32,000 nucleotides of DNA from NCBI GenBank assembly GCA_963736115.1, contig CAVTNR010000001.1, positions 79,091-111,090 of the forward strand. The letters are read 5' to 3'. Source of the stretch: an uncultured bacterium (lineage in GTDB: Bacteria > Zhuqueibacterota > QNDG01 > DTFT01). How positions within the stretch are numbered: position 1 is the first letter of the stretch; the number at the start of each line of letters is the position of its first letter. A program made the translations under genes and the position numbers. Below, one piece after another: positions 7,445 through 30,115 of the stretch. The notes beneath the pieces were generated by a model. It saw nothing but the letters and a program-made list of their open reading frames with translations, was not told the origin of the DNA and searched no databases.

Positions 7445-7800
7445 GATTTTGCTCCTTGACTGGTGTGTGCGGCGCTGTCCTTGTGCGAACGGTTTTTATC
7501 ACGGTCCGAAACCGGACGGGTCTTCCCGATAATGACCCGGCAGGGCCTAACCAGAACCTGGCCCGCCCTGTACCCGGATTGTTCGACCCGGATCACCTTT
7601 CCCTCATCACCTTCGCCGTACCCGAGGCATTCCATGGTCAGAGGATCGAAATCAGCCCCGGGCTGAACCTCGAAAGGGGTATAACGGAGGGCCTGGGTGA
7701 TGCCGGTGAGAAGATCGAGTATGGAGTCCGTATTTTTCAGGAACTCCTTCTCGTTTTCGCTGCCTGAGTAATGACGTTTCATCGACTTCAGGGATTCCAT
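7441..7800 (-). CDS. GrpE-like nucleotide-exchange factor, C-terminal (beta-domain) part; frame is open upstream of the listed start
   Basis: DFDPLTMECLGYGEGDEGKVIRVEQSGYRAGQVLVRPCRVIIGK matches the GrpE pattern FDPxxHEA...V..GY...G.VLRPA.V.V. Upstream in the same frame the sequence reads DRKEFIGRSTFNALIPAMESLKSM, which is like the GrpE LLPVLDNLERAL helix. Confidence 0.75.
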   Translation of the reverse strand: MESLKSMKRHYSGSENEKEFLKNTDSILDLLTGITQALRYTPFEVQPGADFDPLTMECLGYGEGDEGKVIRVEQSGYRAGQVLVRPCRVIIGKTRPVSDRDKNRSHKDSAAHTSQGAKS

Positions 7801-10570: not shown

Positions 10571-12710
10571 GTTTCGACTCCCCGTTTTTCGTTACCGAAC
10601 GGTTGCGTTCCCGGATGCAGGAGGCCACGTATCGGCCGATTTTCCGCGCCACCGCGGCCGCGTCGTTGAGCTCGTCGGGAAGCACGGGAATAATTTTATC
10701 CACTTGTTTTTCCAGCCCGGTTTCCCGATCGATCCCAAGCGCGACCATGGTGGTGTGCAGTTTCCCGTTTGATTCCGCGTTCAAGGACTCGAATACGGCC
10801 TGCACTTCCACTATCCCGGACTTGGAATTCTGGAAGGACCGGTTCCATTGGCAGTCGGTGATTAAAATCAGGTACATCATGCGTCCGCGGGCGAGGGCTT
10901 TGGCCTCGCGCATGATGAAGGCAATGGAGACAGCGTCTGACTGAACGCCGGTTCCGGTATCCGGGAGTCCGGGCAGCGCCCGGAGCGCGTCCTGCTTGTA
11001 CAGCACGGGCGTTTTCTTCGGATGGTAAATCCACTGAACCAGGGGGCCCGTCATGCCCGGCCGGACCTCTCCGCTGTGGTACAGGCCGGCAAGAAGCTGA
11101 ATTTCGCTCCGGGACGTGGATTTCAGCCAGGCCGCGGTCAGGAGTTTCAGCATGTGCATCTGACGGCTGTTCAGCGATCCCGATCCGTCACAGGCGATGG
11201 CCAGCACCGGCCGGCCGCGACGGTCCGCCCTTTCCCGCATGCGGTACCGTTTAAACACGGCCGCCGAAAAATCCGCCAGGGACAGCCGTGCGGTGTCCAG
11301 TGCCCCGGATGTGCGCAAACGGTCCGTTTCGGGAAGCTTCTGCACGTTCGGATAGAGGCTTCGGCGCAGAGCTTCAGTGACGGGGAGGGCTTCCTCCAGC
11401 AGCTTTTGACAGGCGGACATGTCCTCTGAAAGCGGCACCGGTCGGTCGAATATCTCGGCAGTGGTGGTCTTGCCGTCAGCCAGGGGCACTTCGATCTGGC
11501 GTCCGTCGGACGGGCTGCCCTCCATCAGGCCGCCGTCGAAGATTTTAAAATGAAGCATCCGCTCGACCAGATCGGACCTGATGTCCTCCCAGGACCGTTG
11601 ACGGATTCCGGCAGCGCGCAGGGTCATGATGAATTTGACGAGCGCGGTTTCCTCCTGGTCGGTCCGTCCCAGGGGATCCTCCTTGGTCCCGGACAGGAGG
11701 TTGTTGACCATTACCATGGTCAACCGTTCGACGATACTGTCCGGATCGATCAGCAGGGGCGGTGTGAGCCGTTCCAGCGGATGGAGTTCCGATTCCCCGG
11801 AAGGCTCGCCGGCTTCCACGTCAAATACTTCGTCTAGTACGTCGAGGGCCTCAGGGTGTCCGGGTTTAGCCGAGTTGAGGAACTGAGACCGTTCCGGATT
11901 TATTTTCCGGGGAGCCTTTACCATCGGCGCGAGCGCCTTGACCAGGTCGCGGCCCCACTGGTTCCCCAGTTCCAGGAGGAATCCCGGTTCCGTCCGGTTC
12001 AGTGCCTCGATATAGGGGCGAGACGTCAAGACGGTCTTTTCCAGCATCATAGCCGTGACAGGATGCAGTTCCAGCCGCCTGAAATCGGGCAGAAGCTCCC
12101 CGTAGAGCACGCCGTTGAAAACCACGTCGATCACGGTGCGGAACCGGAGATCCTGCTGAGACGCCATGAAGAGACGGTAGATCTCGAGCGCGGAGAAGGC
12201 GGGATCGGACGACAGTTCCTGGAGCAGGATCCGGATGCGAATGGCCTTCTCGATGATTTTCACCAGAAGGAGCCGGTTTTGACCATCCGTCTCGGTGCCT
12301 TCCGTCACCGTCTCATCTTCGAGCATGAGAATCAGGGAAATCACCTTTTCGCTGAAAACAGCTTCATATTCCAAATATCCGGTCAGTCCGATGGCGGCGT
12401 ACGCCGCCGCGACCGCCGGGTACTGCGTGTACAGGCAGCTGAGCTGGGGTTTCACGCAAAAGGGCGATTCGGGATCGGGATTCCGCCCGGCGAGCCTGTG
12501 AACCGCCGTCTGGATCTGGGTCATCCGGCGGTAGAAGAGGTTCTGGGCCGGGAGCCTCTCCGAGAGATCCATGTTTGGACGGAACGCATCCCCCAGGGTA
12601 ATTCCCGCCCAGTCCGATTTCGACTTGCGCTTCCGGTAATAGGAGGAATACCATCCGCGGGTCGAGTGATCATCGTCCCGGTTTGAAGCGTTTTTCCCGG
12701 CTGTTGTCAT
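10560..12710 (-). CDS. Large protein with a C-terminal von Willebrand factor A (vWA/MIDAS) domain; CbbO/NorD-like architecture
   Basis: 716 aa. MIDAS DxSxS motif in PVLAIACDGSGSLNS (about 11176-11190). Downstream TGTGVQSD and LILITDCQ fit the remaining MIDAS positions. Long helical N-terminal region. Lies immediately downstream of a MoxR-class ATPase gene. Confidence 0.85.
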   Translation of the reverse strand: MTTAGKNASNRDDDHSTRGWYSSYYRKRKSKSDWAGITLGDAFRPNMDLSERLPAQNLFYRRMTQIQTAVHRLAGRNPDPESPFCVKPQLSCLYTQYPAVAAAYAAIGLTGYLEYEAVFSEKVISLILMLEDETVTEGTETDGQNRLLLVKIIEKAIRIRILLQELSSDPAFSALEIYRLFMASQQDLRFRTVIDVVFNGVLYGELLPDFRRLELHPVTAMMLEKTVLTSRPYIEALNRTEPGFLLELGNQWGRDLVKALAPMVKAPRKINPERSQFLNSAKPGHPEALDVLDEVFDVEAGEPSGESELHPLERLTPPLLIDPDSIVERLTMVMVNNLLSGTKEDPLGRTDQEETALVKFIMTLRAAGIRQRSWEDIRSDLVERMLHFKIFDGGLMEGSPSDGRQIEVPLADGKTTTAEIFDRPVPLSEDMSACQKLLEEALPVTEALRRSLYPNVQKLPETDRLRTSGALDTARLSLADFSAAVFKRYRMRERADRRGRPVLAIACDGSGSLNSRQMHMLKLLTAAWLKSTSRSEIQLLAGLYHSGEVRPGMTGPLVQWIYHPKKTPVLYKQDALRALPGLPDTGTGVQSDAVSIAFIMREAKALARGRMMYLILITDCQWNRSFQNSKSGIVEVQAVFESLNAESNGKLHTTMVALGIDRETGLEKQVDKIIPVLPDELNDAAAVARKIGRYVASCIRERNRSVTKNGESKHDR

Positions 12711-12725
12711 GGCGTATCATCCCAC

Positions 12726-13739
12726 TTAAAAAAGGTTGCCCTGTATGGTCGTGGTTTCGTCTTCCTCCATCTTCAGACCGAAGACCTGGTTGAAAACGCT
12801 GTGGTTCAGCTTCCGGTCCTCCAGGCTGGCATTGCCCATCAGGGTGGTCTGGGTGATCTGCTGAAGGCTCAGGTGGGGCATGGCGCCGGCCATCCGCAGA
12901 AATGCCAGGTACCCGTAAATGGAAGGCGGCGGAACGGATTGAAGCCTCCCCTCGACACGGTGTTTTCGGATTTCCTGGCCCATCGCGACCACCTTGACGA
13001 TCAGGTCCCTTTTTAACTCCGACGCATGGGTCTCGCGGACCAGATGCTGGAGGACCAGAATCTCGAGATCGGCCGGAAGGTAGTCGAGCGTGATGTTCAT
13101 CGAGAACCGACGTTTCAAGGCGTCATCGAGAGTGACCAGAGTGTGGGTCGATTCGTTTTCCGCCTGGTAATTGCTGTCGGAGATCCATGTGATGAATTCA
13201 CCGCGGATGGTGTTGCCGTCGGGGAGCAGAATATGCCCCCGGGTCATCAGGTCGAGAAGGCCCCCCTGCACGCTCGAAGAATGAACCCGTCCCATCTCCC
13301 TCAGCCAGACCAGTGGGTAATTTGCGTCTGTGGACGCCTCCGCGTCCTTCAGGGATTCGACCAGTTTGCTCGGCTCGTCGTACGTGGTGCCCCCCTTGAG
13401 CGAACGCCGCTGGTACAATTCACCGGGCGTTTCGTAGACGGCCATTTCGACGGGATACACCTTCAGGAGTTTGACGGGAAGCCCGAGCCGGTTGCAGACA
13501 TGGCTGAAGTTTTCCGGCACCCGGTACAGCGCCTCGATCAGGGACGTTTTGGCACTGCCGGTCGGTCCGCTCAGATGGATGAATTCATGCGAGGCAATGC
13601 CGTACACGAGCGATTCCAGGATCCATTTCAGGATGAAAAGGGGATTGCCGCCGGGCGCGGGAAGCAATTCGATCAAATCCTCCGCGCCGGCCTTCCGGTA
13701 CGCTTTTTCCGCAGCGATGTGAAATACCTGTTTCGACAT
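12726..13739 (-). CDS. MoxR/CbbQ/NorQ-class (AAA_5-like) AAA+ ATPase with a non-canonical Walker B
   Basis: Perfect AAGGAGGA RBS 5 nt upstream of the ATG at 13739. Walker A is GPTGSAKT (13545-13568). LVWLREMGRV sits where hhhhDE is expected. GGLLDLMTRGHILLPDG and LDDALKRRF match the MoxR sensor/Arg regions. Confidence 0.85.
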   Translation of the reverse strand: MSKQVFHIAAEKAYRKAGAEDLIELLPAPGGNPLFILKWILESLVYGIASHEFIHLSGPTGSAKTSLIEALYRVPENFSHVCNRLGLPVKLLKVYPVEMAVYETPGELYQRRSLKGGTTYDEPSKLVESLKDAEASTDANYPLVWLREMGRVHSSSVQGGLLDLMTRGHILLPDGNTIRGEFITWISDSNYQAENESTHTLVTLDDALKRRFSMNITLDYLPADLEILVLQHLVRETHASELKRDLIVKVVAMGQEIRKHRVEGRLQSVPPPSIYGYLAFLRMAGAMPHLSLQQITQTTLMGNASLEDRKLNHSVFNQVFGLKMEEDETTTIQGNLF

Positions 13740-13756: not shown

Positions 13757-16024
13757 TCAGGCCGGCCGAAGGGTCAGCCGTTCGTCCGAATCCGCATCAA
13801 CGATCCAGACGGCTGAAGATCCGGCCCGGTTTTTTCTCAGGAATTCCATGAAAGCCTCCGCGGCCAGCGACCGCGCCTCCTCGATGATCGCGCGGGCCCC
13901 GAATGCGAGGACGTGTGTGTCCATCCGTCCAATCACCCGCGATCCGACCGAAGGTTCCACCCGGACTTCGTCTACGTTCATCCGCATCCGTGACGCGGCC
14001 GCCCAAATCGAAGCGCGTATGGCGCGTTCGACGATCAGAGCCAGGGCGGGTCCGTCCAGCGGCCGGAACAGGATGGGTGTCCCGATCCGGGATAGAAAAG
14101 CGCCGGAGAAAAGATCCCGGATTTCGGAAAGGACCGTGTTCCGGATCTCCCGGTCGGAGGTCTGATCCTGAAATCCGATGCGTTTCCGCACTCCCTCGTC
14201 CCTTCCATTGGGCAGATTGATGGTGAACGCGAAGACCAGGTTGGCGCATGAGAACATCGTGCCCGAGGCGCTCTGGCCTTCGCCGGTCTCCAGGATCTGC
14301 AGGAAGATATCCGCAATGGCGGAGCGGACTTGGGGTGGCGCATGATCCAGGTCGCTCACCTCGACGAGGGCTCCGGCGTGATGTTTGGCGGCTTGTTCCA
14401 GTCGTCCGCTCTGGTAGGAGCCCACGATACCGCGTCCCGAGCCGAGAAGCTGGGCCGAGGCTGTGTAGAAATCGGGTATACTCGCAGCATCGATGTTGAT
14501 GTAGGGAATGCCCAGTTCCCGCGCCACCAGGACGGCGCTCTGGGATTTTCCTGTGGCCGGCGTGCCCTGGGCGCAGTAGCGGATGGGCTGGTGATCCGGC
14601 CGGGTCAGGCATTCCATTCGTAACCTCGCCACCAGCTGGTCGATGGCGTCGTCCTGGGCCAGGATTTCGGTCTTCACGACATCCGCCAGGTCAGACCGGG
14701 TCAGCACGGCGTTCAGACGTTCCTGGACATGCTCCAGTCGTCCGCCGCGGGGGCGGTTGGGCAGACCTGAAAAAGTCTCGGACAGTTCATGTATATCCGT
14801 GGCGAAATCCCTGGCAGGTCGCGGAGGCGAGCCTCCGGCCTGAAGGATGTTCCATTCCCGCTGGACCAGCGCTGTCAGCACCCGGACCCGGCCCGAGGCC
14901 GGAAGGTCCGAGAGGGCCGACCGAATCCGGTCGAACAATCCGGATTTCAGCGCCGCCGGCACGCCGCCCGATTTCCAGCCGACCTGATCGATTGAAAACC
15001 GGATCATCGAATCCTCCGGGATGTCCGGGGCGTGGCGGATAACCGGCAACAGGGGATCACTCGTACCGCCCTGCCCGCCGTGGAACACCGATTGGAGTTG
15101 CGGATAGTTGCCCGTGAAAATGACCTGTTTCCCGGAGCCGGCCAAAAGTTGAAGCATGGTCTGCACTTCGTTGGCCATCTCGTAGGGATTGATTCCGAAA
15201 TTCAGGCATGCCGCGGGTACGGCCACAATGCCGGGAGCCTTGCCGGCCAGATCCACAAGTGTTTTTCCGTTCAGGGACGGCACCATCAGGCGTCCCACCG
15301 TTCCGCCGGCCGAGGAGAGATGCCGGGCCAGGTGGGCCAGAAGGTAATCCCCGGCGACCGGGTGCTGTATCGCGACGGCGATGGAGAGGGATCCGCTCAT
15401 GAAATCGATCACCTGCCCGCACCAGGCGTCGAGAACCGGGGCGAAGGCGTCATCCGATTCCTTTCCCGGAAGGATGCATTCCAATATTTCGGAAATGTTC
15501 TTGTACCGTTCCAGCAGATCCGAGTCCGCAAGATCCTCGGGCAATTCGTCCTGAAGCGCAATGGCGGCGGATTCAAGATTCTTCAGCTCCGAGAGGAATA
15601 CCCCGGAGCGTGTGGGCGTCATCGGGATCGCCTGAACCCGCATTTCGACCCACAGCGATGACTGACCGGAATCCGTCGTCTGGGCGGGAGGAATGAGGCG
15701 GACTTTATCGCCGAAACGGGACAGATGGGCGAACAGATTTTCGGCGGAGATCCGGACCGAGCGGGGCGCTTTCAGAAGTTCGAATTGTATTCCGAGGACC
15801 CCGTCTTCGACAAGCCGGCAGGTGATGGCGCTGAGACCCTTCCGTCGGTTTTTTTCGCCCGGTCCGGTCCGGAAGGATTTTCCATCCGGCGCGACCGCCA
15901 TTTCGATCGGAACAGCCTGACGGATCAGGCCGATGATCTGGTGAATGACGATGGCCGGATCCGGGCCGTCCGGGGTTTTGGAATTCCAGCTTGAGACGGT
16001 CGGCTGTTTGAATCCGGATGTCAT
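13757..16024 (-). CDS. ClpA/ClpB-like AAA+ protein: novel N-terminal region, degenerate D1-like ring, D2-type module with Walker A and ClpB_D2-small-like C-terminus
   Basis: The ORF track starts at a GTG (16054). The ATG at 16024 has AGGAGA 5 nt upstream, so it is the preferred start. D2 shows Walker A GTPATGKS (14542-14565), ALVEVSDLDHAPPQVRSAIADIFLQILETGE (compare [23 protein letters not shown]), ANLVFAFTINLP, and FLSRIGTPILFRPLD (compare FLNRIDEIIVFxPL). The segment GIVAVPAACLNFGINPYEMANEVQTMLQLLAGSGKQVIFTGNYPQLQSVF resembles Clp D1 but has no P-loop. Confidence 0.85.
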   Translation of the reverse strand: MTSGFKQPTVSSWNSKTPDGPDPAIVIHQIIGLIRQAVPIEMAVAPDGKSFRTGPGEKNRRKGLSAITCRLVEDGVLGIQFELLKAPRSVRISAENLFAHLSRFGDKVRLIPPAQTTDSGQSSLWVEMRVQAIPMTPTRSGVFLSELKNLESAAIALQDELPEDLADSDLLERYKNISEILECILPGKESDDAFAPVLDAWCGQVIDFMSGSLSIAVAIQHPVAGDYLLAHLARHLSSAGGTVGRLMVPSLNGKTLVDLAGKAPGIVAVPAACLNFGINPYEMANEVQTMLQLLAGSGKQVIFTGNYPQLQSVFHGGQGGTSDPLLPVIRHAPDIPEDSMIRFSIDQVGWKSGGVPAALKSGLFDRIRSALSDLPASGRVRVLTALVQREWNILQAGGSPPRPARDFATDIHELSETFSGLPNRPRGGRLEHVQERLNAVLTRSDLADVVKTEILAQDDAIDQLVARLRMECLTRPDHQPIRYCAQGTPATGKSQSAVLVARELGIPYINIDAASIPDFYTASAQLLGSGRGIVGSYQSGRLEQAAKHHAGALVEVSDLDHAPPQVRSAIADIFLQILETGEGQSASGTMFSCANLVFAFTINLPNGRDEGVRKRIGFQDQTSDREIRNTVLSEIRDLFSGAFLSRIGTPILFRPLDGPALALIVERAIRASIWAAASRMRMNVDEVRVEPSVGSRVIGRMDTHVLAFGARAIIEEARSLAAEAFMEFLRKNRAGSSAVWIVDADSDERLTLRPA

Positions 16025-16077
16025 ACGTTCTCCTGTTCTGGGTGATCCAGCCACCCGATCCGGATAAGGACAAAAAA

Positions 16078-16095
16078 AAGGCCAGTTTTATAATG
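16078..16095 (-). promoter_or_regulatory. Weak sigma-54-like -24/-12 element upstream of the ClpB-like/MoxR/vWA operon
   Basis: The minus strand reads cTGGCCtttttTTGTcc. GG and G are correctly spaced against TGGCAC-N5-TTGC, but the invariant C of the -12 GC is a T. It lies about 55-70 nt upstream of the ATG at 16024 and next to a divergent sigma-54-activator-type gene. Confidence 0.2.
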
Positions 16096-16172: not shown

Positions 16173-16231
16173 GTAAATAATACCGCGTGCAGATCAACTG
16201 CCGGACCCAAACACCACCCCGCGGGAGGATC

Positions 16232-17887
16232 ATGGAATACCAGGCCCTGCGATTCGAAGACCCGGACCGTCCGACATGCTGTACCCTCAGCGCGGAGACC
16301 GCCGAAGACATCCTTGAAATCAGGAAGGGTCGTCTTCCCGTTGTTTATCTGCTCGCGGACGACGCCATCGACCGCTTCACCGGATACCCCGCCCTGATCC
16401 GCGACCGCGGAACCAAGCACAAGAAAAAATCCCTGTCCGACCTGCTTCTCGGTTACGACCGAATCTGCATGATCCGGGGCTCCTATGAAGGAATCCGCCA
16501 GCTGATCCGGAGCTGTAACGATCTCCTGAAGAACGCCCGGGTTCAGGCGGATCAGAACGCGTTCCTCATTTTCATTCCCGACGGTCCCTTCATCCGTCTG
16601 TGGAATCGAACCAGCGGGAGCGGAACGCGCGCAAGGGACACGGGCAGATCCCTCGATCCCGGGACCCGGTCCGAGCTTCCCGGGATGCTTCCGATCCAGG
16701 AGGTTCCCCCGGAACTAAACGAAAGCTATCTGGGCCATTCGGAAGATGTTCGGCTGGTCCGGCAGTTGATCCTCGTCGCGGCCCGCTGTGAGAATCCGAT
16801 TCTGATCCTGGGCGAATCCGGAACGGGCAAAGAGATCGCGGCCCGGAGCATACACCAGTTGAGCCTCCGGCGTAATCTCCGGTTTGAGGCGGTCAACTGC
16901 GGCGCACTTCCCACAAACCTGCTCGAATCCATTCTGTTTGGACACAAGAAGGGCGCATTCACCGATGCCAAACGGGACAAAAAGGGTTCCTGGGAACTGG
17001 CGGGAAAGGGGACGCTTTTTCTGGATGAGATCGGCGACCTGTCGCTGGAGAATCAGGTTAAAATTCTGCGCGTTCTCTCCTCCGGCCGGATTCGCCCGCT
17101 CGGCGCTGACGAGGATGTCGCCGTCCATGCGCATGTCATTGCCGCGACGAACCGGGATTTGTTTTCGATGGTACAGGCAGGACAGTTCCGGGAGGACCTG
17201 TATTACCGGCTGCGGTCTTTCCTGATTTTCACTCCTGCCCTGAGAAACCACCCCGACGACATTCCGCTGATGGCGCAAAGTTTTTGGAAGAAAATCACAC
17301 GAGACGATTCGGCCCGCCTTCCGGCCTCCGTGCTGACCGAGATGAAGGCATACCCCTGGTACGGGAACGGCCGGGAGATGAAGAACCTGCTCTCACTGCT
17401 GTACGGTCTTTTCGGAAGGGTTCCGCTAGGCGTGGAACATTTCAGGGCGGTTTACCGGTATCAGCGGAATGACGCGCGTCCACGGAAGGGCGCTCCGGAC
17501 GGGAATGATCTCTCGATGCACCGGGCCGAGTGCCTCCAGCACCTGAAACGGACGGATGAGGTCCTGCGGGAGGTGCAGATGGCCGTTCAGCCGCATCTCA
17601 AGAAAACGAGCCGGACTCCGGCCGACACGCGGACGACCGTTGCCCTGATCGAAAACCGGATTTACGAGCTCGAGACCCTGTGTCTCCATCCCGTTCTTTT
17701 CGTCCATCCGGAGCTGTATCAGCGGATCCGCGATTTAAGCGCGGAACTGGTCGGTCTGGTCCGGCATTTGAGAAAATCGAGCGGTGCGGTGAAGGCATAC
17801 TGGGCCAAACATCTGGATGGCCCTTGTCAGGAAACCCAGCGAATGGTCTTCCGGGAAGTCGGGAAGCTCATGCGGACTCGGAAATAA
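16232..17887 (+). CDS. Sigma-54-interaction-domain AAA+ regulator (bEBP-like) with an unknown N-terminal sensor region, GAFTDA loop variant and no recognisable C-terminal HTH
   Basis: The ATG at 16232 has GGGAGG 4 nt upstream (the track start 16187 is a less likely upstream extension). Signatures: ILILGESGTGKEIAARSIH (Walker A), GTLFLDEIGDL (Walker B), GAFTDA at 16952-16969, REDLYYRL. The last ~150 aa show no Fis-type HTH pattern. Confidence 0.9.
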   Translation: MEYQALRFEDPDRPTCCTLSAETAEDILEIRKGRLPVVYLLADDAIDRFTGYPALIRDRGTKHKKKSLSDLLLGYDRICMIRGSYEGIRQLIRSCNDLLKNARVQADQNAFLIFIPDGPFIRLWNRTSGSGTRARDTGRSLDPGTRSELPGMLPIQEVPPELNESYLGHSEDVRLVRQLILVAARCENPILILGESGTGKEIAARSIHQLSLRRNLRFEAVNCGALPTNLLESILFGHKKGAFTDAKRDKKGSWELAGKGTLFLDEIGDLSLENQVKILRVLSSGRIRPLGADEDVAVHAHVIAATNRDLFSMVQAGQFREDLYYRLRSFLIFTPALRNHPDDIPLMAQSFWKKITRDDSARLPASVLTEMKAYPWYGNGREMKNLLSLLYGLFGRVPLGVEHFRAVYRYQRNDARPRKGAPDGNDLSMHRAECLQHLKRTDEVLREVQMAVQPHLKKTSRTPADTRTTVALIENRIYELETLCLHPVLFVHPELYQRIRDLSAELVGLVRHLRKSSGAVKAYWAKHLDGPCQETQRMVFREVGKLMRTRK

Positions 17888-17911: not shown

Positions 17912-18352
17912 ATGAATTCGATACGACCGTTCTCGCTCTCCATTAAAGGCCTTATTTTCAACGCCGATGGGCGCTGCCTGATTCTGAAACGATCGACGCT
18001 GAACAGAAATTACCCGGAGAAGTGGGAGCTTCCGGGCGGGAAACTGAATCCCGGTGAGTCGTTCGCTGACGCGTTGTGCCGGGAGGTTTCGGAGGAAACC
18101 GGCCTGCATATCGAGATCGACCATCTGGCGGGCGCGGTGGAATCGGAGCTCCCCGATTGGAGAATCGTGCATCTGGTCATGACCGCCCACACGATACCGG
18201 GTGAAATCCGGCTGAGTTCGGAACACACGGATTACGCCTGGGTGGCGATAGACGATTTGGCGGAGTTGGATATGCCGGAACACTTCCTCCGGTTCATCCA
18301 TGAGTACCGTAGAAAGGAGGGACTCCATGCCGGTGCGTCGCGGCCTCGTTAA
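17912..18352 (+). CDS. NUDIX hydrolase
   Basis: The Nudix box GX5EX7REUXEEXGU is present as GGKLNPGESFADALCREVSEETGL. 146 aa. It starts 24 nt after the regulator gene and overlaps the start of the next gene. Confidence 0.9.
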   Translation: MNSIRPFSLSIKGLIFNADGRCLILKRSTLNRNYPEKWELPGGKLNPGESFADALCREVSEETGLHIEIDHLAGAVESELPDWRIVHLVMTAHTIPGEIRLSSEHTDYAWVAIDDLAELDMPEHFLRFIHEYRRKEGLHAGASRPR

Positions 18353-20834
18353 ACAGCAGATCGGAAAATACAGCCAGGAGTACAGGCATTACGAAGTGTA
18401 TTCACAGGTTCTAAGGAAAATACTGGAAGCGGCATGCCGGCAGGCCGCTCCGCTGGCCATCGTGCAAACCCGCGCGAAAACCGTCTCGAGCTTCGCGGAG
18501 AAAATTATCCGCAAGCCGACCGCGGACCCGGTCCATGATTTTACGGATCTTTGCGGGGCCCGGGTGATCACGAACACCAAAACTGAAGTCGATCGGTTGT
18601 GCGGGTTCATCCGTGCGAATTTCAATATCGATGAGCAGAACAGCCAGGATACTTTCGAACGGCTGAAAACGGCGGAATTCGGTTATCTGTCCGTCCATTA
18701 CATCGTGCAGATCGACAGGAAGGAGATTCTCGGCATCCCCATTCCGGAATCGATCGGCGCGAGAAAGGCGGAAATTCAGGTCCGGACCCTGCTTCAGCAT
18801 GCCTGGGCGAATATGAGCCATGACCTGATCTACAAGAACCGTTTCGAAGTACCCAGGCGATGGACCCGAAGCCTGGCGCGCACTTCGGCCCTGCTGGAAC
18901 AGGCCGACGGTGTATTCGACGAGGTGCTCGGGGAACTCGATGCATACCGGCTCCATTACGGCATCTTGTCCGAACATTCCAAGAGGGACGAGGAACTGAA
19001 GAATCTCGAATTGATTCTCGAGAATGAACCGGTCGAATCGCACAAGCCCGCAATCGCGCTCCGGATCGCCCGGCTGCACAAGACCGGCTGGAACTGGGAG
19101 GGGATCATTGACCGGCTGGGACCGTTCTCCGCCCGGAAATGCGGCGAGAGGCCGGAGATTCTCATGGAGTACGGCTATGCCATTTGCAGGAAAAACAAGG
19201 ACAATCCCGGCGGCAGGGTTTATCTGAAAGGCCAGAAGCTTCTCGCGGAAGCGGCGGAATCGGGTGCGGGTGAGAATCACAGCGATGCGATATGCCATTA
19301 CGCATGGTCTTATGAGAACATCAAGGGTCGCGAGCAGAAGGCCCGGAAACTGTACCGGCAGGCCCTCGACGCGGATCCGAAAGATCCCTATGCGCTCGCT
19401 TCCTTTCTGGAGTTTGAATTATTCTGCAGCCGTGACGACCGGTTCATACCGTACATGAAACCGACTTTGCTGCAGGCCGTCGAAACCTGCCGGGCCCACG
19501 TCAGGGCCGGGATGGAACTCCCGTGGGCCTTTTTCACCATGGGTAAAATGCATCTGCTCCTGGGCCAGCCGTATGAAAGTCTCGCGGCGGTCGCGACCGC
19601 CATACACGTCTGCCTGGGAACCGCGACCTGCGTGCCGCGGGACGTTTTTCAGGAGCAGCGGAATTTCCTGCGGCGCATCAATACCGGAAGGGAGTGGCCG
19701 CCCGCGCATCGGTGGGTCGATAAGACGCTGATGCTTGCGGAAGCCATTCGATCGCCGGACGGCCGTGCCCTGCGCCAGTTGAAGGAAATGCGGAGGAGGC
19801 AAAAATCCTTTGCCGGACCGGTCGTTATCGTGGCGGGCGGCGCGGATTCATCCGTCCAGGGGAAAATGGCGGAATACCGTCTGCCGTTGATGCAATCCTT
19901 CGACGGTTTTTCCGGCACGGTCGTTTCCGGGGGCACCCGGGCCGGGATTCCGGGACTGGTCGGAGAAATGGCGCGAAAAGTTTCAGGTCGGAAAAGCGGA
20001 GGGCTGTTTGCATTGGCCTATCTTCCCGGTAAAATGCCGACCGGTGTCCAGATCGATCCGCGTTATCATGAAACCGTCATTCTGGAAGGAGACGATTTCA
20101 CCCCGGACCAGCCTATTCAGAACTGGATCGACATGATCGCGTCGGGCATCAAACCTTCCGAAGTGAGGGTGCTGGGCATTAACGGGGGAAGGATTGCCGC
20201 TTTCGAGTACCGCCTGGCCCTCGCGCTCGGCGCCCGCGTGGGAATCGTACAGTCCAGCGGAAGAGCCGAATTGGATTTGCTGAAGGAAGCCAGATCTACC
20301 GCGATAAAAAATCTGGTGTGGCTTCCCGCGGACGCCATGACCCTTCGGGCGTTCGTCAATCCGGGCCTGACAGTGATGTCGCCCGGCCATCTGGAAAGCG
20401 CGGGCAAAGCCATTCATACCGCTTTTTTGGTTGAGAACCGGCATCGAATCGTCGATCGGGCCATGCTCCCGTGGGAGGAATTGCCCGAGGACCTGAAGGA
20501 GTCCAATCGGAGCCAGGCGGCCTATTCCGTTCAAATTCTCAAGGCGGTCGGTTATGGTGTCCGAAAAGCCGCTTCGTCCCGCGTCTCCATTCGGTTCACA
20601 CGCAGTGAAATTGAAACCATGGCCGAGATGGAGCACGGCCGCTGGGTTGTTGAAAGGCTGGGAAGCGGGTGGAAATATGGTGAAAAAAGGGACCCGGTGA
20701 ACCGAATTAGTCCCCACCTGGTGCCGTGGAAAGAACTCGCGGACAAGTTCAAGGGATATGACCGCATCGCCGTGTGCAAATGGCCGGCTCTGCTGAAGGA
20801 TGCGGGATTGGAGATTTATCGACAGAAACGATAA
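18327..20834 (+). CDS. Multidomain RelA/SpoT-type nucleotide pyrophosphokinase (alarmone-synthetase fold) - TPR - SLOG (TRPM/LSDAT-like) - tandem RyR-domain protein
   Basis: The ATG at 18327 has AGGAGG 6 nt upstream (the track start 18300 is in frame, 9 codons earlier). RSH motifs: RAKTVSSFAEKIIRK, DLCGARVIT, FGYLSVHYIV, AEIQVRTLLQHAWANMSHD. TPR-like region at about 18990-19710. SLOG at about 19810-20340: VVIVAGGADSS, VVSGGTRAGIPGLVGE, VLGINGGRIAAFEYRLALALGARVGIVQSSGRAELDLL. RyR at about 20400-20820: MLPWEELPEDLKESNR and MEHGRWVVERLGSGWKYGEKRDPVNRISPHLVPWKELADKFKGYDR. Confidence 0.85.
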   Translation: MPVRRGLVKQQIGKYSQEYRHYEVYSQVLRKILEAACRQAAPLAIVQTRAKTVSSFAEKIIRKPTADPVHDFTDLCGARVITNTKTEVDRLCGFIRANFNIDEQNSQDTFERLKTAEFGYLSVHYIVQIDRKEILGIPIPESIGARKAEIQVRTLLQHAWANMSHDLIYKNRFEVPRRWTRSLARTSALLEQADGVFDEVLGELDAYRLHYGILSEHSKRDEELKNLELILENEPVESHKPAIALRIARLHKTGWNWEGIIDRLGPFSARKCGERPEILMEYGYAICRKNKDNPGGRVYLKGQKLLAEAAESGAGENHSDAICHYAWSYENIKGREQKARKLYRQALDADPKDPYALASFLEFELFCSRDDRFIPYMKPTLLQAVETCRAHVRAGMELPWAFFTMGKMHLLLGQPYESLAAVATAIHVCLGTATCVPRDVFQEQRNFLRRINTGREWPPAHRWVDKTLMLAEAIRSPDGRALRQLKEMRRRQKSFAGPVVIVAGGADSSVQGKMAEYRLPLMQSFDGFSGTVVSGGTRAGIPGLVGEMARKVSGRKSGGLFALAYLPGKMPTGVQIDPRYHETVILEGDDFTPDQPIQNWIDMIASGIKPSEVRVLGINGGRIAAFEYRLALALGARVGIVQSSGRAELDLLKEARSTAIKNLVWLPADAMTLRAFVNPGLTVMSPGHLESAGKAIHTAFLVENRHRIVDRAMLPWEELPEDLKESNRSQAAYSVQILKAVGYGVRKAASSRVSIRFTRSEIETMAEMEHGRWVVERLGSGWKYGEKRDPVNRISPHLVPWKELADKFKGYDRIAVCKWPALLKDAGLEIYRQKR

Positions 20835-21122: not shown

Positions 21123-21175
21123 TTATGGATAGCTTCGGAAAACTCTTCCTTCCGTCCAGAATTCGGGAGGTTCCC

Positions 21176-24100
21176 ATGTTGAGCCGCATCCAGTCCCTGT
21201 CACAGCGTACGCTCCCGATTCTCCTGCTTCTGATCCCCCTATTGTCCGATCCGTCCCTGCGGGCCGCGGAACGCCGGACGAATGTGAATTTTCTGGTGAC
21301 AGCCGGCCGGGACGCGTCGATCTCTTCCGGGGACAGCCTGTTCCGCTCCGTTTTCTTCATCCGGTGTCCTATCGGTTTCAAATCCCCTGTTTACGTCCGG
21401 ATTTTCGACGCGGACGCTGGCGGCCGTTTCGACCAGCCGGCTTCCGGGGACCGCGCCCGTTACCGGGTTTTCGGTAAAGGCGCCATCCGGCATTCCATCC
21501 GCTCGGTCCGCGACGCGCTCCCGGACGCAAAACCGCTGGCCGATCTCGAGATCGGGGAGGATGTGCTGTACGACGGCCAGTGGCGGACCCTGGCGGTTCT
21601 GGTTCCGGCGGACGGGCAGGAAGCGGATTCGATCCGCGAATTTCAGCTTGTCGTAGACGGCGCGGCCGGAACCGGGGTCAACCGTTACCGGCTTTTTGTC
21701 TCATCCGAAGACAGCCGCAACACGCCGGTCGAAGGGCTCGTGATTTCGAGCCCGGTCGCAACCGTCCTGCTGCCGGCTTCCAATATCCTGGTCACCCGCA
21801 TTCCATTCCGCATCCCTTCAGCGGTTTCAGGCCTCAGGATCACGGTTTTCGACGCCGAGAGCATGGGCGAGTGCTATGTGCAGACTGAAAAACGCATGAA
21901 GATACAGGTTCCGGTTTCAGGCAATATGGAATCACGATCCACGCATGTGGACCTCCTGCCGGAGGAGAGGGGCGGAAAGGCCGGACTGATGTTCGCGGGA
22001 TCCCACTCCAGGCAGGACCATGTTCAGTGCCGGATCGAGGACGACTCCGGCGCCACGGTCGATTTTCTCATGCCAGCGTTTTCTTCCACGGACAACAGCC
22101 TGCCCTCGCCTGCCATCGATCTTCAGCCGCTATCGGATTGTGTGTCCATCGTGCTCGACGCGTCTCGTTCGACCGATCCGGACGGGGACCAGCTGTTTTT
22201 CGAATGGAAATCCGGAGGGGCGTGTATCGGCGCGGGACCGCGCATCGTTCACCGTTTTCCCGGGCCGGGCCTGTACAAGGTCGAAATGACAGTGCGCGAC
22301 AATTCTGGATACATCGCGGACCGGCGGACATTGGAACGGGCCGTGCGGATCAACGAGCCCCCGGTTTCCCTGCCTGCCGCGCCTTCGGGAGGAGCGCCGG
22401 GAGAAGCCCTGGTTTTCGATGGCAGCGGCTCGTCCGACGCGGACGGAAGGATCACGGCCTGGCGCTGGGATTTCGGAGACGGGGCCGGCGCATCGGGCGC
22501 GGTCACCCGGCACACGTACGCGGTTCCCGGCCATTACCGCGTCACTTTAACCGTGGAGGACGACAGCCGGTCGTTCTGCGCGTCGGACGGCCAATCCGTT
22601 TCAGTGCGCATCAATTCGCCGCCGATGGCCCGTATGCGGGCGCAGTCCAGAGCCGCGGTCGGGGAGGAAGTGCAGGCGGACGGCGGCGGGTCGAAGGACG
22701 CGGACGGAACCCTTGTCCGGTACGCATGGGATTTCGGAGACGGCGCGACAGCCGAAGGCGTGACAGCCGGCCACAAGTACGCAGCGCCTGGCCTTTACCG
22801 CATCCGCTTGGCCGTGACGGATGACGCGGAACGGATCAACAGCTCGCAAACCGATTCCGCTCTGGTACGGATCAATGCGCCTCCCGAAGCGAGGGGACAG
22901 GCTCCGGCCGTTGTCGCGGCGGGTCAGGAAGTTGTGTTCGATGGTTCCGCATCGCGCGATCCGGACGGCCGCATTGTCGCAACAGAGTGGATTTTAGGCG
23001 ACGGATCCGCGGACGCGTCCGGGCCGATTGTCCGGCACGCGTATGAAAAGCCGGGCACCTACGAGGTGATTCTGCGGGTCCGGGATGATTCCGGAGTGTC
23101 CAGCGACACGGACACGCTCCGGCTCTCCGTCCGGGTGAACGCGCCGCCTGTTCCGAATGCGGGAGGCGACCGGGTGCTCAATGAAAGCGTCGCGCTGTTT
23201 GACGCGTCCGGATCCGCGGATCCGGACGATCCCATCATTTCTTACCGTTGGGATTTCGGGGACGGAAAGTCCGCTGAGGGCCTGCGTGTGCGCCATGCTT
23301 ACAACCTGCCCGGCACTTATGAGGTCAGCCTCACGGTCACGGACGCTTCCGGCACGTCTTCCGCTTCGCGGACCGGCCGCATCCGGGTCACGGTGAACCA
23401 TCCTCCAATCGCGGACGCGGGCCCGGCCCGCACCGTAGCCCCGGGGGAGCCGGTGCTTCTGGACGGTGGATTCTCGAGCGATCCGGACGGCCGCATCGAA
23501 TCCTTCCGCTGGGAGATCGAACCCGGTATTTTCCGGGAGGGCCGGCGGGTGGAGATCGCATACGACAAACCCGGACTGCGCCAGCCCCTCCTGTTCGTCC
23601 GGGATGACGCGGGCGCTGAGGATGTTTTCGCGACCGAGATCCGTGTCAACGCGCCGCCGGTTGCGGCCGCGGCGCCGGTACCGTCCGCGGCGCCCGGCGA
23701 CACCGTGGTCTTCGACGGAAGGGGCTCCCGCGATCCGGACGGCCGCATCGCCGAGGCTGTGTGGGACTTCGGGGACGGAACGCCGCCCGTCAACGGACTG
23801 CGGTGCGCCCATGTGTACGCGGCACCCGGCGTCTACTCCGCGGTCCTGAGAATCCGGGACGACAGCGGCGCAGGCAACGGGTTGGCCTCGGTGGTGTGCA
23901 CGGCGGCAATCAACCACGCGCCGGAACCGGACGCGGGCGGCGACCGCAGCCAGTGCGGTTTGATGGTGGATTTCGACGGATCCGCCAGCCGGGACGCGGA
24001 CGGAGACGCCCTGTCCCTGAGATGGGATTTCGGGGACAGCACCTCGGCCTATGGCAGGCGCGTCCGCCACCGTTACCCGAAACCGGGGCTGTACCCGGTG

Positions 24101-25990
24101 AGGCTCATCGCGGACGACGGAACCGGACTGGCGAACGGCCGGAGCGAGACCTTCATCAAGGTTCACCTGCATTCCGCGCCCGTAGCCATTCTGGACGCTC
24201 CCGTCCAGGTATGCGCAGGGGAAAATGTTCTTTTCGACGCAAGCCGGTCCTTCGACGAGGATCGGGATCTGCTTTTATTTGAATGGGATTTCGGAGACGG
24301 AGCGAAGGGAGCGGGGGCGACAGCCGAGCACACCTTCCGCGCTGGCGGGCTGGTTCGGGTTCTTCTGACCGTGCGGGATAACAGCGGACTGCCGTGCAAT
24401 GAATCGGCGGCTACGGCCGTGATACGCGTGACCGACGCGCCCGTGGCGCAGGCCGGACCGGATCAGACCGTATGCGCAAATCAATCCGTTGTGTTCGACG
24501 GAACCGGGTCCGGGGGCGGCAAACGGCCTATTCAGGGATACGAATGGGATTTCGGGGACGGCGGCCAGGGCGGGGGCGTCCATCCCGTGCATGCTTACAC
24601 GCGGCCGGGACTGTACACCGTGCGGCTCCGGATCACAGTGCCGGCAGAGGGGAATTGCGAAAATTTTTCGGAGGACGAGATGACGGTGCGGGTCCTGCCC
24701 TCTCCGGTCGCATCCTTCGAGGCGGATCCGGTCGTCTGTCCGGGAGCGGATGTGGTGTTCGATGCCGGCGAACCGGATGGGGAACCGGCTCCGGCAGGGC
24801 GTTATGAATGGGACTTCGGGGACGGTGTCACGGGTTCGGGACCCCGGATGACGCACCGGTTCGGAAAACCGGGGACCTTCACGGTCCGTCTGACCGTGAC
24901 CACGGACGGTGAGGAGGGCTGCCGGACCGCATCGGCTGAACGGACGGTATTCGTGAACGAAAGACCCGAGGCCGGAATCGAAACCGGGCATGTGGAACGG
25001 CCCGGCCCGGGCGAAGCCATCCGGTTCATGGCTTTTCAGAGCCGGGACGGAGACGGGGTCATTCGCTCCTATACATGGGATTTCGGAGACGGGGAAAAGG
25101 CCGAAGGTGTCGAGGCCGTGCACCGATACCGGAAGCCGGGCGCATTCCTGGCTGTTCTGCGGGTGGAGGATGACAGCGGCACGGATTGCGGAGTCGATAC
25201 CGTTTCCGTCCGGATGCTCATTGAAAAACCCGCGGACCCGTGGGCGCCCGTAGGACCGGCTGCGCTGGCCGTCGGGGAGCCTGGTGTTTTTTCCGTCCCG
25301 GAGAACGGTCCGTCCGGAGAAACGGTCTGGACGTTTGGGGACGGGGACACGCTGACCGGCCCGCGGGTTTCCAAGTCTTTCCGCGCACCGGGAACCTGGC
25401 AGGTTCAGGCGGGCGGTTCCGGATCCTGGAGCAGGTCCGTCGAGGTCCGGGTCATGGCTGCGCCTGAAGTGACCGCGCCGGAGCGCATGGATGCCGACGT
25501 CCTCGTTCCGACCGAGTTCCGCGCGTCCGTTTCAGAACGGGACCTCGTTTTCCCAGCCGTGGTCTGGAATTTCGGGGACGGCCGCATGCTGGAATCCAAT
25601 CCGGCCGTTCATACCTATGAGAAACCCGGATCCTACGAGGCCTCCGTAACCGTGAGGGATGCCCGCAATCCGGCTGTTCCGGCCGCGGTCCGGCCGGTGG
25701 CCGTGACCGTGCACCCGCCGCCGGAGGCCCGCATCGAAGTCAGCCCTGACACCCTGTACGCCGGCGGCGGCAGGGACGAGGTTCTGTTTCTGGCCGTGCC
25801 CCTTCATCCGGATGTCCCGATCGCGGCGCAATGGGAATTCGGAGACGGCCGGTCCGGCCGGGGCAGCCGCGTCCTGCATGCCTACGCCCGTCCGGGCGCG
25901 TATACGGTCCGGCTCACGATATGGAATACCCACCGTCCGTCGTCCAGACCGGTGTCTGTCGAGAAACAGATTCGGATATGGCCGCGATGA
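21176..25990 (+). CDS. Secreted giant protein: signal peptide, ~300-aa unknown N-terminal region, then 15 tandem PKD domains
   Basis: The ATG at 21176 has GGGAGG 6 nt upstream and encodes MLSRIQSLSQRTLPILLLLIPLLSDPSLRAAE, a signal-peptide-like sequence (the track start 21125 is less likely). There are 15 repeats of the PKD signature WDFGDG...H.Y..PG.Y.V.L.V.D. Confidence 0.9.
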   Translation: MLSRIQSLSQRTLPILLLLIPLLSDPSLRAAERRTNVNFLVTAGRDASISSGDSLFRSVFFIRCPIGFKSPVYVRIFDADAGGRFDQPASGDRARYRVFGKGAIRHSIRSVRDALPDAKPLADLEIGEDVLYDGQWRTLAVLVPADGQEADSIREFQLVVDGAAGTGVNRYRLFVSSEDSRNTPVEGLVISSPVATVLLPASNILVTRIPFRIPSAVSGLRITVFDAESMGECYVQTEKRMKIQVPVSGNMESRSTHVDLLPEERGGKAGLMFAGSHSRQDHVQCRIEDDSGATVDFLMPAFSSTDNSLPSPAIDLQPLSDCVSIVLDASRSTDPDGDQLFFEWKSGGACIGAGPRIVHRFPGPGLYKVEMTVRDNSGYIADRRTLERAVRINEPPVSLPAAPSGGAPGEALVFDGSGSSDADGRITAWRWDFGDGAGASGAVTRHTYAVPGHYRVTLTVEDDSRSFCASDGQSVSVRINSPPMARMRAQSRAAVGEEVQADGGGSKDADGTLVRYAWDFGDGATAEGVTAGHKYAAPGLYRIRLAVTDDAERINSSQTDSALVRINAPPEARGQAPAVVAAGQEVVFDGSASRDPDGRIVATEWILGDGSADASGPIVRHAYEKPGTYEVILRVRDDSGVSSDTDTLRLSVRVNAPPVPNAGGDRVLNESVALFDASGSADPDDPIISYRWDFGDGKSAEGLRVRHAYNLPGTYEVSLTVTDASGTSSASRTGRIRVTVNHPPIADAGPARTVAPGEPVLLDGGFSSDPDGRIESFRWEIEPGIFREGRRVEIAYDKPGLRQPLLFVRDDAGAEDVFATEIRVNAPPVAAAAPVPSAAPGDTVVFDGRGSRDPDGRIAEAVWDFGDGTPPVNGLRCAHVYAAPGVYSAVLRIRDDSGAGNGLASVVCTAAINHAPEPDAGGDRSQCGLMVDFDGSASRDADGDALSLRWDFGDSTSAYGRRVRHRYPKPGLYPVRLIADDGTGLANGRSETFIKVHLHSAPVAILDAPVQVCAGENVLFDASRSFDEDRDLLLFEWDFGDGAKGAGATAEHTFRAGGLVRVLLTVRDNSGLPCNESAATAVIRVTDAPVAQAGPDQTVCANQSVVFDGTGSGGGKRPIQGYEWDFGDGGQGGGVHPVHAYTRPGLYTVRLRITVPAEGNCENFSEDEMTVRVLPSPVASFEADPVVCPGADVVFDAGEPDGEPAPAGRYEWDFGDGVTGSGPRMTHRFGKPGTFTVRLTVTTDGEEGCRTASAERTVFVNERPEAGIETGHVERPGPGEAIRFMAFQSRDGDGVIRSYTWDFGDGEKAEGVEAVHRYRKPGAFLAVLRVEDDSGTDCGVDTVSVRMLIEKPADPWAPVGPAALAVGEPGVFSVPENGPSGETVWTFGDGDTLTGPRVSKSFRAPGTWQVQAGGSGSWSRSVEVRVMAAPEVTAPERMDADVLVPTEFRASVSERDLVFPAVVWNFGDGRMLESNPAVHTYEKPGSYEASVTVRDARNPAVPAAVRPVAVTVHPPPEARIEVSPDTLYAGGGRDEVLFLAVPLHPDVPIAAQWEFGDGRSGRGSRVLHAYARPGAYTVRLTIWNTHRPSSRPVSVEKQIRIWPR
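22100..25975 (+). repeat. Tandem diverged coding repeats (PKD domains, roughly 255-290 nt each) with a recurring near-identical 17-mer tgggatttcggrgacgg
   Basis: The 17-mer encoding WDFGDG recurs near 22468, 22729, 23250, 24013, 24283, 24544 and 25077, with more diverged copies between them. At protein level the motif variants run from WKSGGA to WEFGDG (15 units). Confidence 0.85.
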
Positions 25991-26055
25991 GCCTGCGGCT
26001 CCACATCGGACTCCGCGACGGCCGCATCCTGTCCCGTCCTGAAGGACCCAGCCGC

Positions 26056-28341: not shown

Positions 28342-28415
28342 GGGGGTTCCCTGCGCCGGAACCGGGCCGGCTCCGGCAGCCGCGACGATCCATCCCATCC
28401 TGAACGAAGACGACG

Positions 28416-30107: not shown

Positions 30108-30115
30108 GCCGCTGA

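Follow-up and report, generated by a model that had tools for sequence, protein, structure and literature searches.

Introduction

RSH (RelA/SpoT-type) enzymes are regulators of the stringent response and, as has emerged more recently, also toxins in phage defence; SLOG domains and, since 2025–26, RyR Repeat12 (R12) domains are recognized as receptors for ADP-ribose (ADPR)-type or adenine nucleotides. Here we consider a gene pair in which all of these parts meet. It lies in a 32,000-nucleotide stretch of DNA from an uncultured bacterium of the Zhuqueibacterota (assembly GCA_963736115.1, contig CAVTNR010000001.1, positions 79,091 to 111,090), which we refer to at its full length as the window. 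The pair consists of a gene for a 146-residue NUDIX hydrolase (17912..18352, forward strand) and a gene for an 835-residue fusion protein (18327..20834, forward strand) that is made up of an RSH synthetase domain, a helical solenoid, a SLOG domain, and two RyR repeats. Family-wide counts in this text refer to 80 homologous loci that were fetched, all of them from metagenome-assembled genomes.

Each part of this module has described relatives. The best matches to the catalytic domain are the small alarmone synthetases (SASs) RelQ and RelP (SAS1/SAS2; PDB 5DEC, 6FGK, 6EWZ), which have the same catalytic fold and motifs and likewise lack an HD domain; these are single-domain proteins of ~200–250 residues, however, whereas the fusion protein adds ~660 residues (solenoid, SLOG, and two RyR repeats) and is paired with a NUDIX enzyme of its own. 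In the toxSAS systems (FaRel, CapRel, PhRel), an RSH synthetase likewise comes with an adjoining or fused neutralizing element, and hydrolase antitoxins that degrade the synthetase product are known (PMC7229694). Here, in contrast, the partner is a NUDIX enzyme rather than a small alarmone hydrolase or a proteinaceous antitoxin, and the synthetase is part of a far larger protein with ligand-binding modules. Thoeris, which pairs the TIR protein ThsB with the SLOG-containing ThsA, is similar in joining SLOG and an enzymatic domain within one protein, in that TIR proteins are encoded at 25 of the 80 family loci, and in the proposed logic, an ADPR-derived signal that activates an effector; the SLOG domains of ThsA are activated by cyclic ADPR (cADPR) isomers (PMC11204291). 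Unlike in Thoeris, the enzymatic domain here is an RSH pyrophosphokinase and not SIR2 or Macro-TM, the SLOG domain is of the TRPM/LSDAT branch, a RyR module and a NUDIX partner are added, and the window holds neither a TIR gene nor a PADLOC match to Thoeris.

Two further comparisons concern the ligand-binding modules. With the RyR Repeat12 domain and the phage RyDEP proteins (PF02026; PMC13232231, PMC12627627), our protein shares the two-repeat, pseudo-symmetric R12 fold and the His-x-x-Trp and Asp residues; it differs in where the module occurs, which is at the C-terminal end of an RSH enzyme instead of in a Ca2+ channel or as a stand-alone phage protein, and in having Ser795 in place of a His. 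TRPM2 combines a SLOG-like MHR1/2 region with a NUDT9-homology domain; the nearest relatives of our SLOG domain are TRPM N-termini, ADPR-bound TRPM2 included, and a NUDIX enzyme is linked to it as well. In our system, however, the NUDIX enzyme is MutT-like, no channel is encoded in the window, and a channel-like protein found at other family loci, with transmembrane (TM), TrkA_N, and RyR regions, carries RyR and not SLOG. All of the building blocks are of known kinds, and we do not regard the module as a new category: it takes its place among the nucleotide-second-messenger systems, for conflict or signalling, that combine RSH effectors with hydrolase partners. A literature search found the RSH–SLOG–RyR protein, its NUDIX partner, and the TIR link undescribed; this search lay outside the 2015 NAR survey of SLOG/LSDAT domains, in which a prior mention is possible.

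A conserved pair of genes

Our analysis confirms a real, widely conserved, and uncharacterized two-gene module. In a protein search, at least 407 cluster representatives cover the full architecture at 40–72% identity, and 276 species genomes carry it out of ~185,000 (one genome per species). The combination of SLOG and RyR modules with an RSH domain, which a preliminary description of this DNA, made from the sequence alone, had considered unusual, turns out instead to characterize a large, multi-phylum family. The 80 loci come from Hydrogenedentota, Chloroflexota, Acidobacteriota, Desulfobacterota, Planctomycetota, Verrucomicrobiota, Bacteroidota, Gemmatimonadota, Actinomycetota, KSB1, Cloacimonadota, and others, with archaeal members in Bathyarchaeia and Methanomicrobia; the hosts are mostly uncultivated anaerobes and sediment lineages, plus archaea. 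Existing annotation of these proteins goes no further than 'hypothetical', 'RyR domain-containing', or 'ppGpp synthetase'. The very patchy distribution across many phyla, archaea included, is typical of mobile conflict modules.

In the window, the NUDIX and fusion genes overlap by 26 nucleotides: the NUDIX stop codon TAA occupies 18350-18352, and the fusion gene begins at ATG 18327, 6 nucleotides behind a ribosome-binding site, AGGAGG (18315..18320, forward strand), that lies within the 3' end of the NUDIX gene. Overlap, start codon, and ribosome-binding site had all been read this way before, and the reading stands. Genes called independently in another assembly of this sequence have the identical 835-residue start and the identical 146-residue NUDIX open reading frame (ORF), and homologues of the fusion protein align from the Met of ATG 18327, which is the origin of the residue numbering used here. 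An alternative in-frame ATG at 18300 is not supported as the start; the gene call and the homologues favour 18327. The AlphaFold model of the full-length protein, computed from an 80-sequence alignment, has a pLDDT of 88.5 and a pTM of 0.79, and the NUDIX, RSH, SLOG, and RyR assignments of the preliminary description all hold by Pfam, AlphaFold models, and Foldseek.

How tightly are the two genes linked? A profile built from the NUDIX genes that neighbour fusion homologues was searched across all 80 loci. It places a NUDIX gene directly upstream of the fusion gene on the same strand at 22 loci, directly downstream on the same strand at 23, fused to the fusion gene at one (L063), in the fetched region but without same-strand adjacency at 7, and nowhere in the fetched region at 27. 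Adjacency on the same strand or fusion thus occurs at 46 of the 80 loci (binomial P ~8e-60, against a background frequency taken from the non-adjacent NUDIX genes of the same 1.18 Mb), such that the gene neighbourhood earlier proposed as a test of the pairing is conserved. Pfam detects N-terminal NUDIX fusions in L063 and L071; the latter is tallied as directly downstream since a separate downstream NUDIX gene is also present. Gene order tracks the clades of the fusion-protein tree, with several switches. Two NUDIX subtypes can be distinguished: type A, to which the window gene belongs, combines a canonical Nudix box with a location that is mostly upstream or within a fusion, and type B, mostly downstream, has an FLFYxDSLP motif and a variant box in which the ExxEE core survives. 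Both subtypes retain the core that binds metal (REUxEE or ExxEE).

Two observations on sequences related to the fusion protein may be added. Searches of IMG/VR viral contigs returned stand-alone RSH domains (L081-L106) that are 30–38% identical to the family's N-terminal domain; they probably represent SAS or toxSAS genes of phages or prophages, and none has the C-terminal modules. A phage origin of the family was rejected, IMG/VR being without any full-length member. Additionally, one Bathyarchaeia member (L026:1466-4648) appears to have an extra C-terminal KaiC/RecA-like ATPase domain after the RyR module (PF06745, 2e-12), which could be a true fusion or the read-through of two genes.

The synthetase domain

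Residues 1-175 of the fusion protein (18327..18851, forward strand) form an RSH-type nucleotide pyrophosphokinase domain of the SAS kind by Pfam, PDB search, and Foldseek. RelA_SpoT (PF04607) matches at residues 48-172 (1.5e-18; 67.5 bits against a cut-off of 27) and also matches all 24 of the family members examined; no HD hydrolase domain was found in the fusion protein by Pfam or NCBIfam. In the AlphaFold model, the domain adopts an alpha/beta fold, and Foldseek matches it to Bacillus subtilis SAS1/SAS2 and Staphylococcus aureus RelP (3e-7; target TM-score 0.75–0.80). The SAS1 structure that is matched is a complex with the product pppGpp (5ded). A sequence search against the PDB likewise puts RelP/RelQ nearest, at 3e-11, and found no close similarity to a validated toxSAS subfamily; the sole solved toxSAS matched is CapRel (7ZTB), at E=0.4.

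The alarmone-synthetase motifs are R49xK51xxxS55, D74xxG77xR79, Y120xS122xH124, E149xQ151xR153T154, and H158. All of the signatures named in the preliminary description are therefore present, except that the last one reads QHAWA (HxWA) and not HxxWA. In the 80 homologues, R49, K51, S55, D74, G77, R79, Y120, H124, E149, Q151, T154, and H158 are invariant, and R153, A78, and S122 are at least 90% conserved, not fully invariant. Judged by its residues, the SAS-type RSH domain is catalytically intact, and the invariance of catalytic residues across 80 homologues that are only 40–72% identical argues for a selected enzymatic activity.

The receptor domains

The RSH domain is followed by an all-alpha, TPR-like solenoid of ~300 residues (residues 177-490; 18855..19796, forward strand), as seen by DSSP on the AlphaFold model, for which the Foldseek match is the TPR protein SPY. 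Of the earlier assignment of TPRs, the all-helical solenoid that resembles TPR proteins is borne out by the model, whereas the Pfam TPR matches are below threshold in this protein (best E=0.0026); they are above the cut-offs in some homologues.

The SLOG domain follows (residues 495-680; 19809..20366, forward strand). Its Pfam match is LSDAT_prok (PF18171), at residues 498-663 (1.1e-6; 28.4 bits against a cut-off of 25.4), which 18 of 24 family members share at E<=0.001. Modelled alone, residues 485-690 give a Rossmannoid of alternating beta strands and alpha helices (pLDDT 85.1, pTM 0.85), for which the best Foldseek matches are the MHR1/2 regions of TRPM5, TRPM2 (including ADPR-bound TRPM2), TRPM4, and TRPM8 at ~5e-7 to 1e-5, followed by molybdenum-cofactor carrier protein (MCP), LOG, and YgdH. 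A sequence-profile search of this region against the PDB returned only sub-threshold TRPM2 matches (E 0.17–1.1). Because the fold search ranks TRPM N-termini first and other SLOG proteins next, we assign the domain to the TRPM/LSDAT branch of the SLOG superfamily, in agreement with what had been proposed. The putative ligand loops are SGGTRAGIPGLVGE and INGGRIAAFE; G530, G536, and G620 are invariant in the 80 homologues, and G535, T537, G621, and E627 are at least 90% conserved. That matched TRPM2 structures were solved with ADPR is consistent with ADPR binding by the N-terminal SLOG-like region of TRPM2.

The C-terminus holds the two RyR repeats that the preliminary description had recognized. 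Repeat 1 (residues 686-747; 20382..20567, forward strand) is degenerate, a helix–helix–strand unit in the model, and has an SNRxQA motif as well as H697 and W716, both ~90% conserved. Repeat 2 (residues 759-832; 20601..20822, forward strand) is canonical, with EMEH770GRW773 and YD812R. Pfam detects only the second repeat (RyR, PF02026, residues 762-819, 8.5e-15; 55.2 bits against a cut-off of 27.4); the first is evident from the model and from alignment with whole R12 domains. Foldseek aligns the module over ~200 columns with the entire Repeat12 of human RyR3, with matches that include complexes with AMP-PCP, ADP, and ATP, and also with a Bacteroides/human R12 chimera. A family profile matches RyR R12 at 9e-30, and repeat 2 matches RyR and Bacteroides RyR-like proteins in the PDB at 5e-23.

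What might this module bind? RyR Repeat12 binds AMP-PCP or ADP in a pseudo-symmetric cleft, in which the adenine stacks on the Trp of H-x-x-W, and R12/RyR domains are described as binding ADP and ATP (PMC12627627). Members of the phage RyDEP family bind or cleave 2'/3'cADPR at a site formed by H75, W78, H100, and D117, which is described as conserved across the R12 family (PMC13232231). E769, H770, R777, W801, and D812 are invariant in the 80 homologues of our protein, and W773 is at least 90% conserved. H770-x-x-W773 aligns with the H-x-x-W of RyR and Bacteroides proteins, which puts W773 at the adenine-stacking Trp of R12, and the spacing from H770 to D812, 42 residues, equals that from H75 to D117 in RyDEP, a mapping by spacing only. 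We infer that three of the four R12 ligand-site residues (His, Trp, and Asp) are kept.

The NUDIX partner

The preliminary description had reported an intact Nudix box in the 146-residue protein, and we find the same: the box, GGKLNPGESFADALCREVSEETGL, fits GX5EX7REUXEEXGU, and Pfam NUDIX (PF00293) matches at 1.5e-19. The protein also matches the profile of NUDIX genes that neighbour fusion homologues, at 1.5e-50. Its best solved relative is 3GRN, a 'MutT related protein' (3.8e-25), followed by MutT, NudI, and CTP pyrophosphohydrolase, and the best NCBIfam matches are of the MutT, NudI, and NudG types, with NudE and NAD-diphosphatase only marginal. No ADPR-pyrophosphatase or NUDT9-type chain is among its PDB matches at E<=1e-5. 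The Pro ~16 residues past the box that serves as the ADPRase signature was considered and set aside, being present in the window protein and missing in other partners, e.g. that of L049. By sequence, then, the partner is MutT-like and not NUDT9-like, such that the analogy to TRPM2 drawn earlier survives for the SLOG half, where TRPM N-termini are the top Foldseek matches, and fails for the NUDIX half. MutT, NudG, and NahA of Bacillus are Nudix enzymes that hydrolyse (p)ppGpp (PMC5845004, PMC7593582, PMC7584652).

Recurrent neighbours

Beyond the NUDIX gene, two kinds of neighbour recur. TIR_2 proteins are encoded by 34 ORFs at the 25 TIR-bearing loci, 27 of them on the same strand as the fusion gene, and 15 of the 34 lie within 1 kb of it, a zone that makes up 15.5% of the flank length (P ~7e-5). 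The catalytic Glu is conserved in 31 of 33, and all 10 that were submitted to Pfam verification scored above threshold. The modules fused to the TIR domain vary: NB-ARC-TPR, WD40, ankyrin, HEAT, FGE-sulfatase, and REC-LuxR are all found. Tight same-strand arrays include NUDIX, fusion, and TIR genes with gaps of 26 and 37 nucleotides in L020, and a fusion gene followed after 21 nucleotides by a TIR-NB-ARC-TPR gene in L066. The commonest class of locus, 20 of the 80 and including the window, has NUDIX and fusion genes only, with neither a TIR gene nor a second RyR protein.

An extra ORF with a RyR module is present at 20 of the 80 loci. One class, the TM-TrkA_N-RyR protein of ~600 residues, recurs next to the fusion gene, and its module is homologous to that of the fusion protein over both repeats (32–42% identity), with His, Trp, SNRxQA, and EHxRW invariant. 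Proteins of a second recurrent class, 850–920 residues long, have an AAA+ domain in the middle and a RyR module at the C-terminus.

The layout of the TM-TrkA_N-RyR proteins (L043:10879-12702, L046:10897-12720, L047:6618-8489, and similar ones) deserves a comment. Two N-terminal hydrophobic segments, with a short re-entrant-looking stretch between them, are followed by RCK/TrkA_N, an arrangement that resembles 2TM RCK-gated channels such as MthK. Neither an Ion_trans_2 match nor a K+ selectivity motif was found in these proteins, and PADLOC returned nothing useful for one of them. A prokaryotic channel gated by a RyR module would be of interest in its own right.

Proposed mechanism and alternatives

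Because TIR enzymes recur at 25 of the 80 loci and RyR-sharing proteins at 20, our reading is that SLOG and RyR receive an external signal of the ADPR type and that the RSH domain provides the output. Our preferred interpretation, which we rate as evenly balanced between right and wrong, is that the gene pair represents, in its smallest version, a conserved module for nucleotide signalling in conflict or stress, with SLOG/RyR input, RSH output, and a NUDIX enzyme as eraser or antidote. In such a module, the activity of the RSH domain would be gated, via the helical solenoid, by the TRPM-type SLOG domain and the two-repeat RyR R12 module. The likeliest input would be an NAD+- or ADPR-derived signal made by the TIR enzymes encoded near many family members; with their variable sensor domains, these are the likeliest candidates for the ligand source. 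Occupancy of SLOG and RyR would switch on the RSH domain through the solenoid. The product, a purine nucleotide with a 3' pyrophosphate as in (p)ppGpp or (p)ppApp, perhaps at a toxic level, would then arrest growth. The translationally coupled, MutT-like NUDIX enzyme would degrade this product or, less likely, the incoming signal; it would thus set the threshold of activation and protect the cell, as an eraser or a type-IV-like antidote. A shared RyR module would mark several proteins as receivers of one diffusible ligand, and the TM-TrkA_N and AAA+ proteins that carry it elsewhere could be parallel receivers of the same ligand as the fusion protein.

A more ambitious version of this interpretation can be offered only tentatively. 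The family may be the effector arm of a so far undescribed TIR-linked immune pathway in which prokaryotic forerunners of the TRPM (SLOG) and RyR (R12) modules read ADPR-derived signals; the output would be of the alarmone type or else a 3'-pyrophosphorylated messenger of a new kind, based on ADPR or adenine, with the NUDIX enzyme as the off-switch and the RyR-tagged channel-like and AAA+ proteins as parallel effectors. We consider this possible, if on balance doubtful.

Several observations weigh against an immune or conflict module of this kind. That signals would come in through RyR/SLOG and leave through RSH is deduced solely from the way in which domains are shared. The nearest relatives of the RSH domain, RelP/RelQ, are non-toxic housekeeping SASs, and the phosphate-binding His of the R12 site (H100 of RyDEP) is Ser795 in the fusion protein. 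The 32-kb window has no TIR gene or second RyR protein, and no TIR gene is present in the fetched flanks of 55 of the 80 loci, such that TIR input may be optional or wrong. No full-length member was found on IMG/VR viral contigs, only solo RSH domains. Finally, PADLOC found no Thoeris or other validated defence system in the window, where it reported only the single-gene candidates PDC-S33 (N-terminus of the fusion protein) and PDC-S07 (the NUDIX enzyme).

The best-surviving alternative is the one favoured by the preliminary description, a self-contained generator–sensor: the RSH domain would make a messenger, the SLOG and RyR modules, both its own and the RyR modules of neighbouring TrkA_N or AAA+ proteins in other genomes, would bind it for feedback and for activation of effectors, and the NUDIX enzyme would erase it. 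A generator and two nucleotide-binding modules do stand in one conserved polypeptide, putative effectors with RyR modules are encoded in the same operons, and NUDIX and fusion genes are all that there is at 20 of the 80 loci, the window among them. RelQ, moreover, is allosterically activated by pppGpp, and the SAS1 structure matched by our domain, 5ded, holds its own product. The known ligands of TRPM-type SLOG and R12 domains, however, are ADPR-type or adenine nucleotides rather than 3'-pyrophosphorylated ones, and the recurrent, positionally enriched TIR enzymes would be left unexplained if the RSH domain were the sole generator. With TIR proteins at 25 of the 80 loci and other RyR proteins at 20, the family context differs from that of a self-contained system, and we regard this explanation as unlikely.

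Somewhat less probable still is a toxin–antitoxin or abortive-infection pair in which a toxSAS would deplete ATP via (p)ppApp or pyrophosphorylate the 3' ends of tRNA, held in check by its own C-terminal domains as in the fused CapRel; the NUDIX enzyme would detoxify the product, and the solenoid would sense a phage protein, with no small-molecule input. Overlapping, translationally coupled genes, a conserved adjacency with occasional NUDIX fusions, the established precedent of toxSAS with hydrolase antitoxins (PMC7229694), and the PADLOC candidates named above are all in keeping with such a pair. The classical form of this idea is nevertheless without direct support: RelP/RelQ (3e-11) are far nearer to the RSH domain than CapRel (E=0.4), and no other toxSAS structure was matched. 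Furthermore, the 27 loci with no NUDIX gene in the fetched region and the 7 in which it is not adjacent on the same strand are not what one would expect of an obligate antitoxin, NUDIX enzymes do not belong to the established classes of toxSAS antitoxin, and two conserved nucleotide-binding modules would be left with no role. A housekeeping variant of the stringent response, i.e. an accessory (p)ppGpp synthetase that SLOG and RyR would tune to the cellular status of NAD+, ADPR, or adenylates, with a NahA-like NUDIX enzyme that makes pGpp from (p)ppGpp and no role in conflict, would suit the RelP/RelQ kinship, the known remodelling of alarmone pools by Nudix enzymes, the description of R12 of RyR1 as an ADP sensor (PMC13642953), and the lack of a linked known defence system in this window, but we think it improbable given the extremely patchy phyletic distribution with archaeal members, the variable sensor domains of the neighbouring TIR-NB-ARC, WD40, and Ank proteins, and the sharing of the RyR module by several proteins.

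Genes around the module

Upstream of the NUDIX gene is a gene for a sigma-54-dependent AAA+ activator (16187..17887, forward strand; Pfam Sigma54_activat, 2.5e-59) that ends 24 nucleotides before the NUDIX start, with no promoter- or terminator-like site in between. A sigma-70-like promoter site is found at 16067-16094, and a 290-nucleotide AT-rich spacer with T-runs follows the fusion stop. Activator, NUDIX, and fusion genes may thus form one transcript; membership of the activator in the module is uncertain, and homologous activators are found beside the fusion gene in L001, L009, L023, L067, and L075. A scan for the sigma-54 promoter consensus gave 5 matches, none near the operon, against 9.3 expected, which is not above chance and leaves control by the upstream activator unproven. 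The N-terminal ~180 residues of the activator (16187-16771) have no Pfam, NCBIfam, or PDB match, and PADLOC's RtcR/PspF-type CARF_AAA_HTH model matches the AAA+ part only, such that a CARF-like sensor could not be shown. If this N-terminal domain does bind a nucleotide, the chemistry of the RSH or NUDIX enzyme might be coupled to transcription.

A divergent block on the reverse strand comprises genes for a ClpA-like AAA+ ATPase (13757-16054), an AAA_5/MoxR-like ATPase (12726-13739), and two proteins with no family match, of 716 residues (10560-12710) and 377 residues (9437-10570). The 716-residue protein, the AAA_5 and ClpA-like ATPases, and the activator also flank the fusion gene in L001, at 72% identity, and in the distant L075, at 34% identity, and parts of the block are near the fusion gene in L052. 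The block may be a linked module or a separate system; PADLOC found no matches in it. No Rfam RNA family was found in the window.

Farther out on the reverse strand, a gene at 5402-7444 encodes a 680-residue Hsp70-family protein (Pfam HSP70, 5e-118) and is accompanied by two ORFs of ~200 residues with no family match (7652-8260 and 8257-8877); the Hsp70-family protein seems to be a non-canonical paralogue of DnaK, encoded in one operon (5402-8877) with unknown proteins. Downstream of the fusion gene, the forward-strand genes at 21125-31537 begin with one for a 1621-residue protein with ~15 PKD domains and continue with those for a LysM-FecR-glucodextranase-B protein (25831-28341), a Cache-domain histidine kinase (28416-30107), and a REC-PAS-HisKA_2 hybrid kinase (30116-31537). 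The PKD and FecR genes show synteny with L001, and the cluster appears to be an unrelated surface or signalling cluster.

Outlook

The wiring of both receptor types to an intact alarmone-synthetase domain, together with a NUDIX partner and recurrent TIR enzymes, suggests that an uncharacterized bridge connects immune signalling by NAD+-derived molecules to growth control of the alarmone type. Testable hypotheses about the ligands of bacterial RyR and TRPM-type SLOG modules follow, and these bear on a long-standing question, namely whether the equivalent modules in RyR and TRPM channels of animals respond to cADPR-type ligands. Should the TIR-linked pathway prove true, NAD+-derived and (p)ppNpp-type signalling would be joined in a single protein, and two ligand modules of eukaryotic Ca2+ channels would be found together in one ancestral prokaryotic system.

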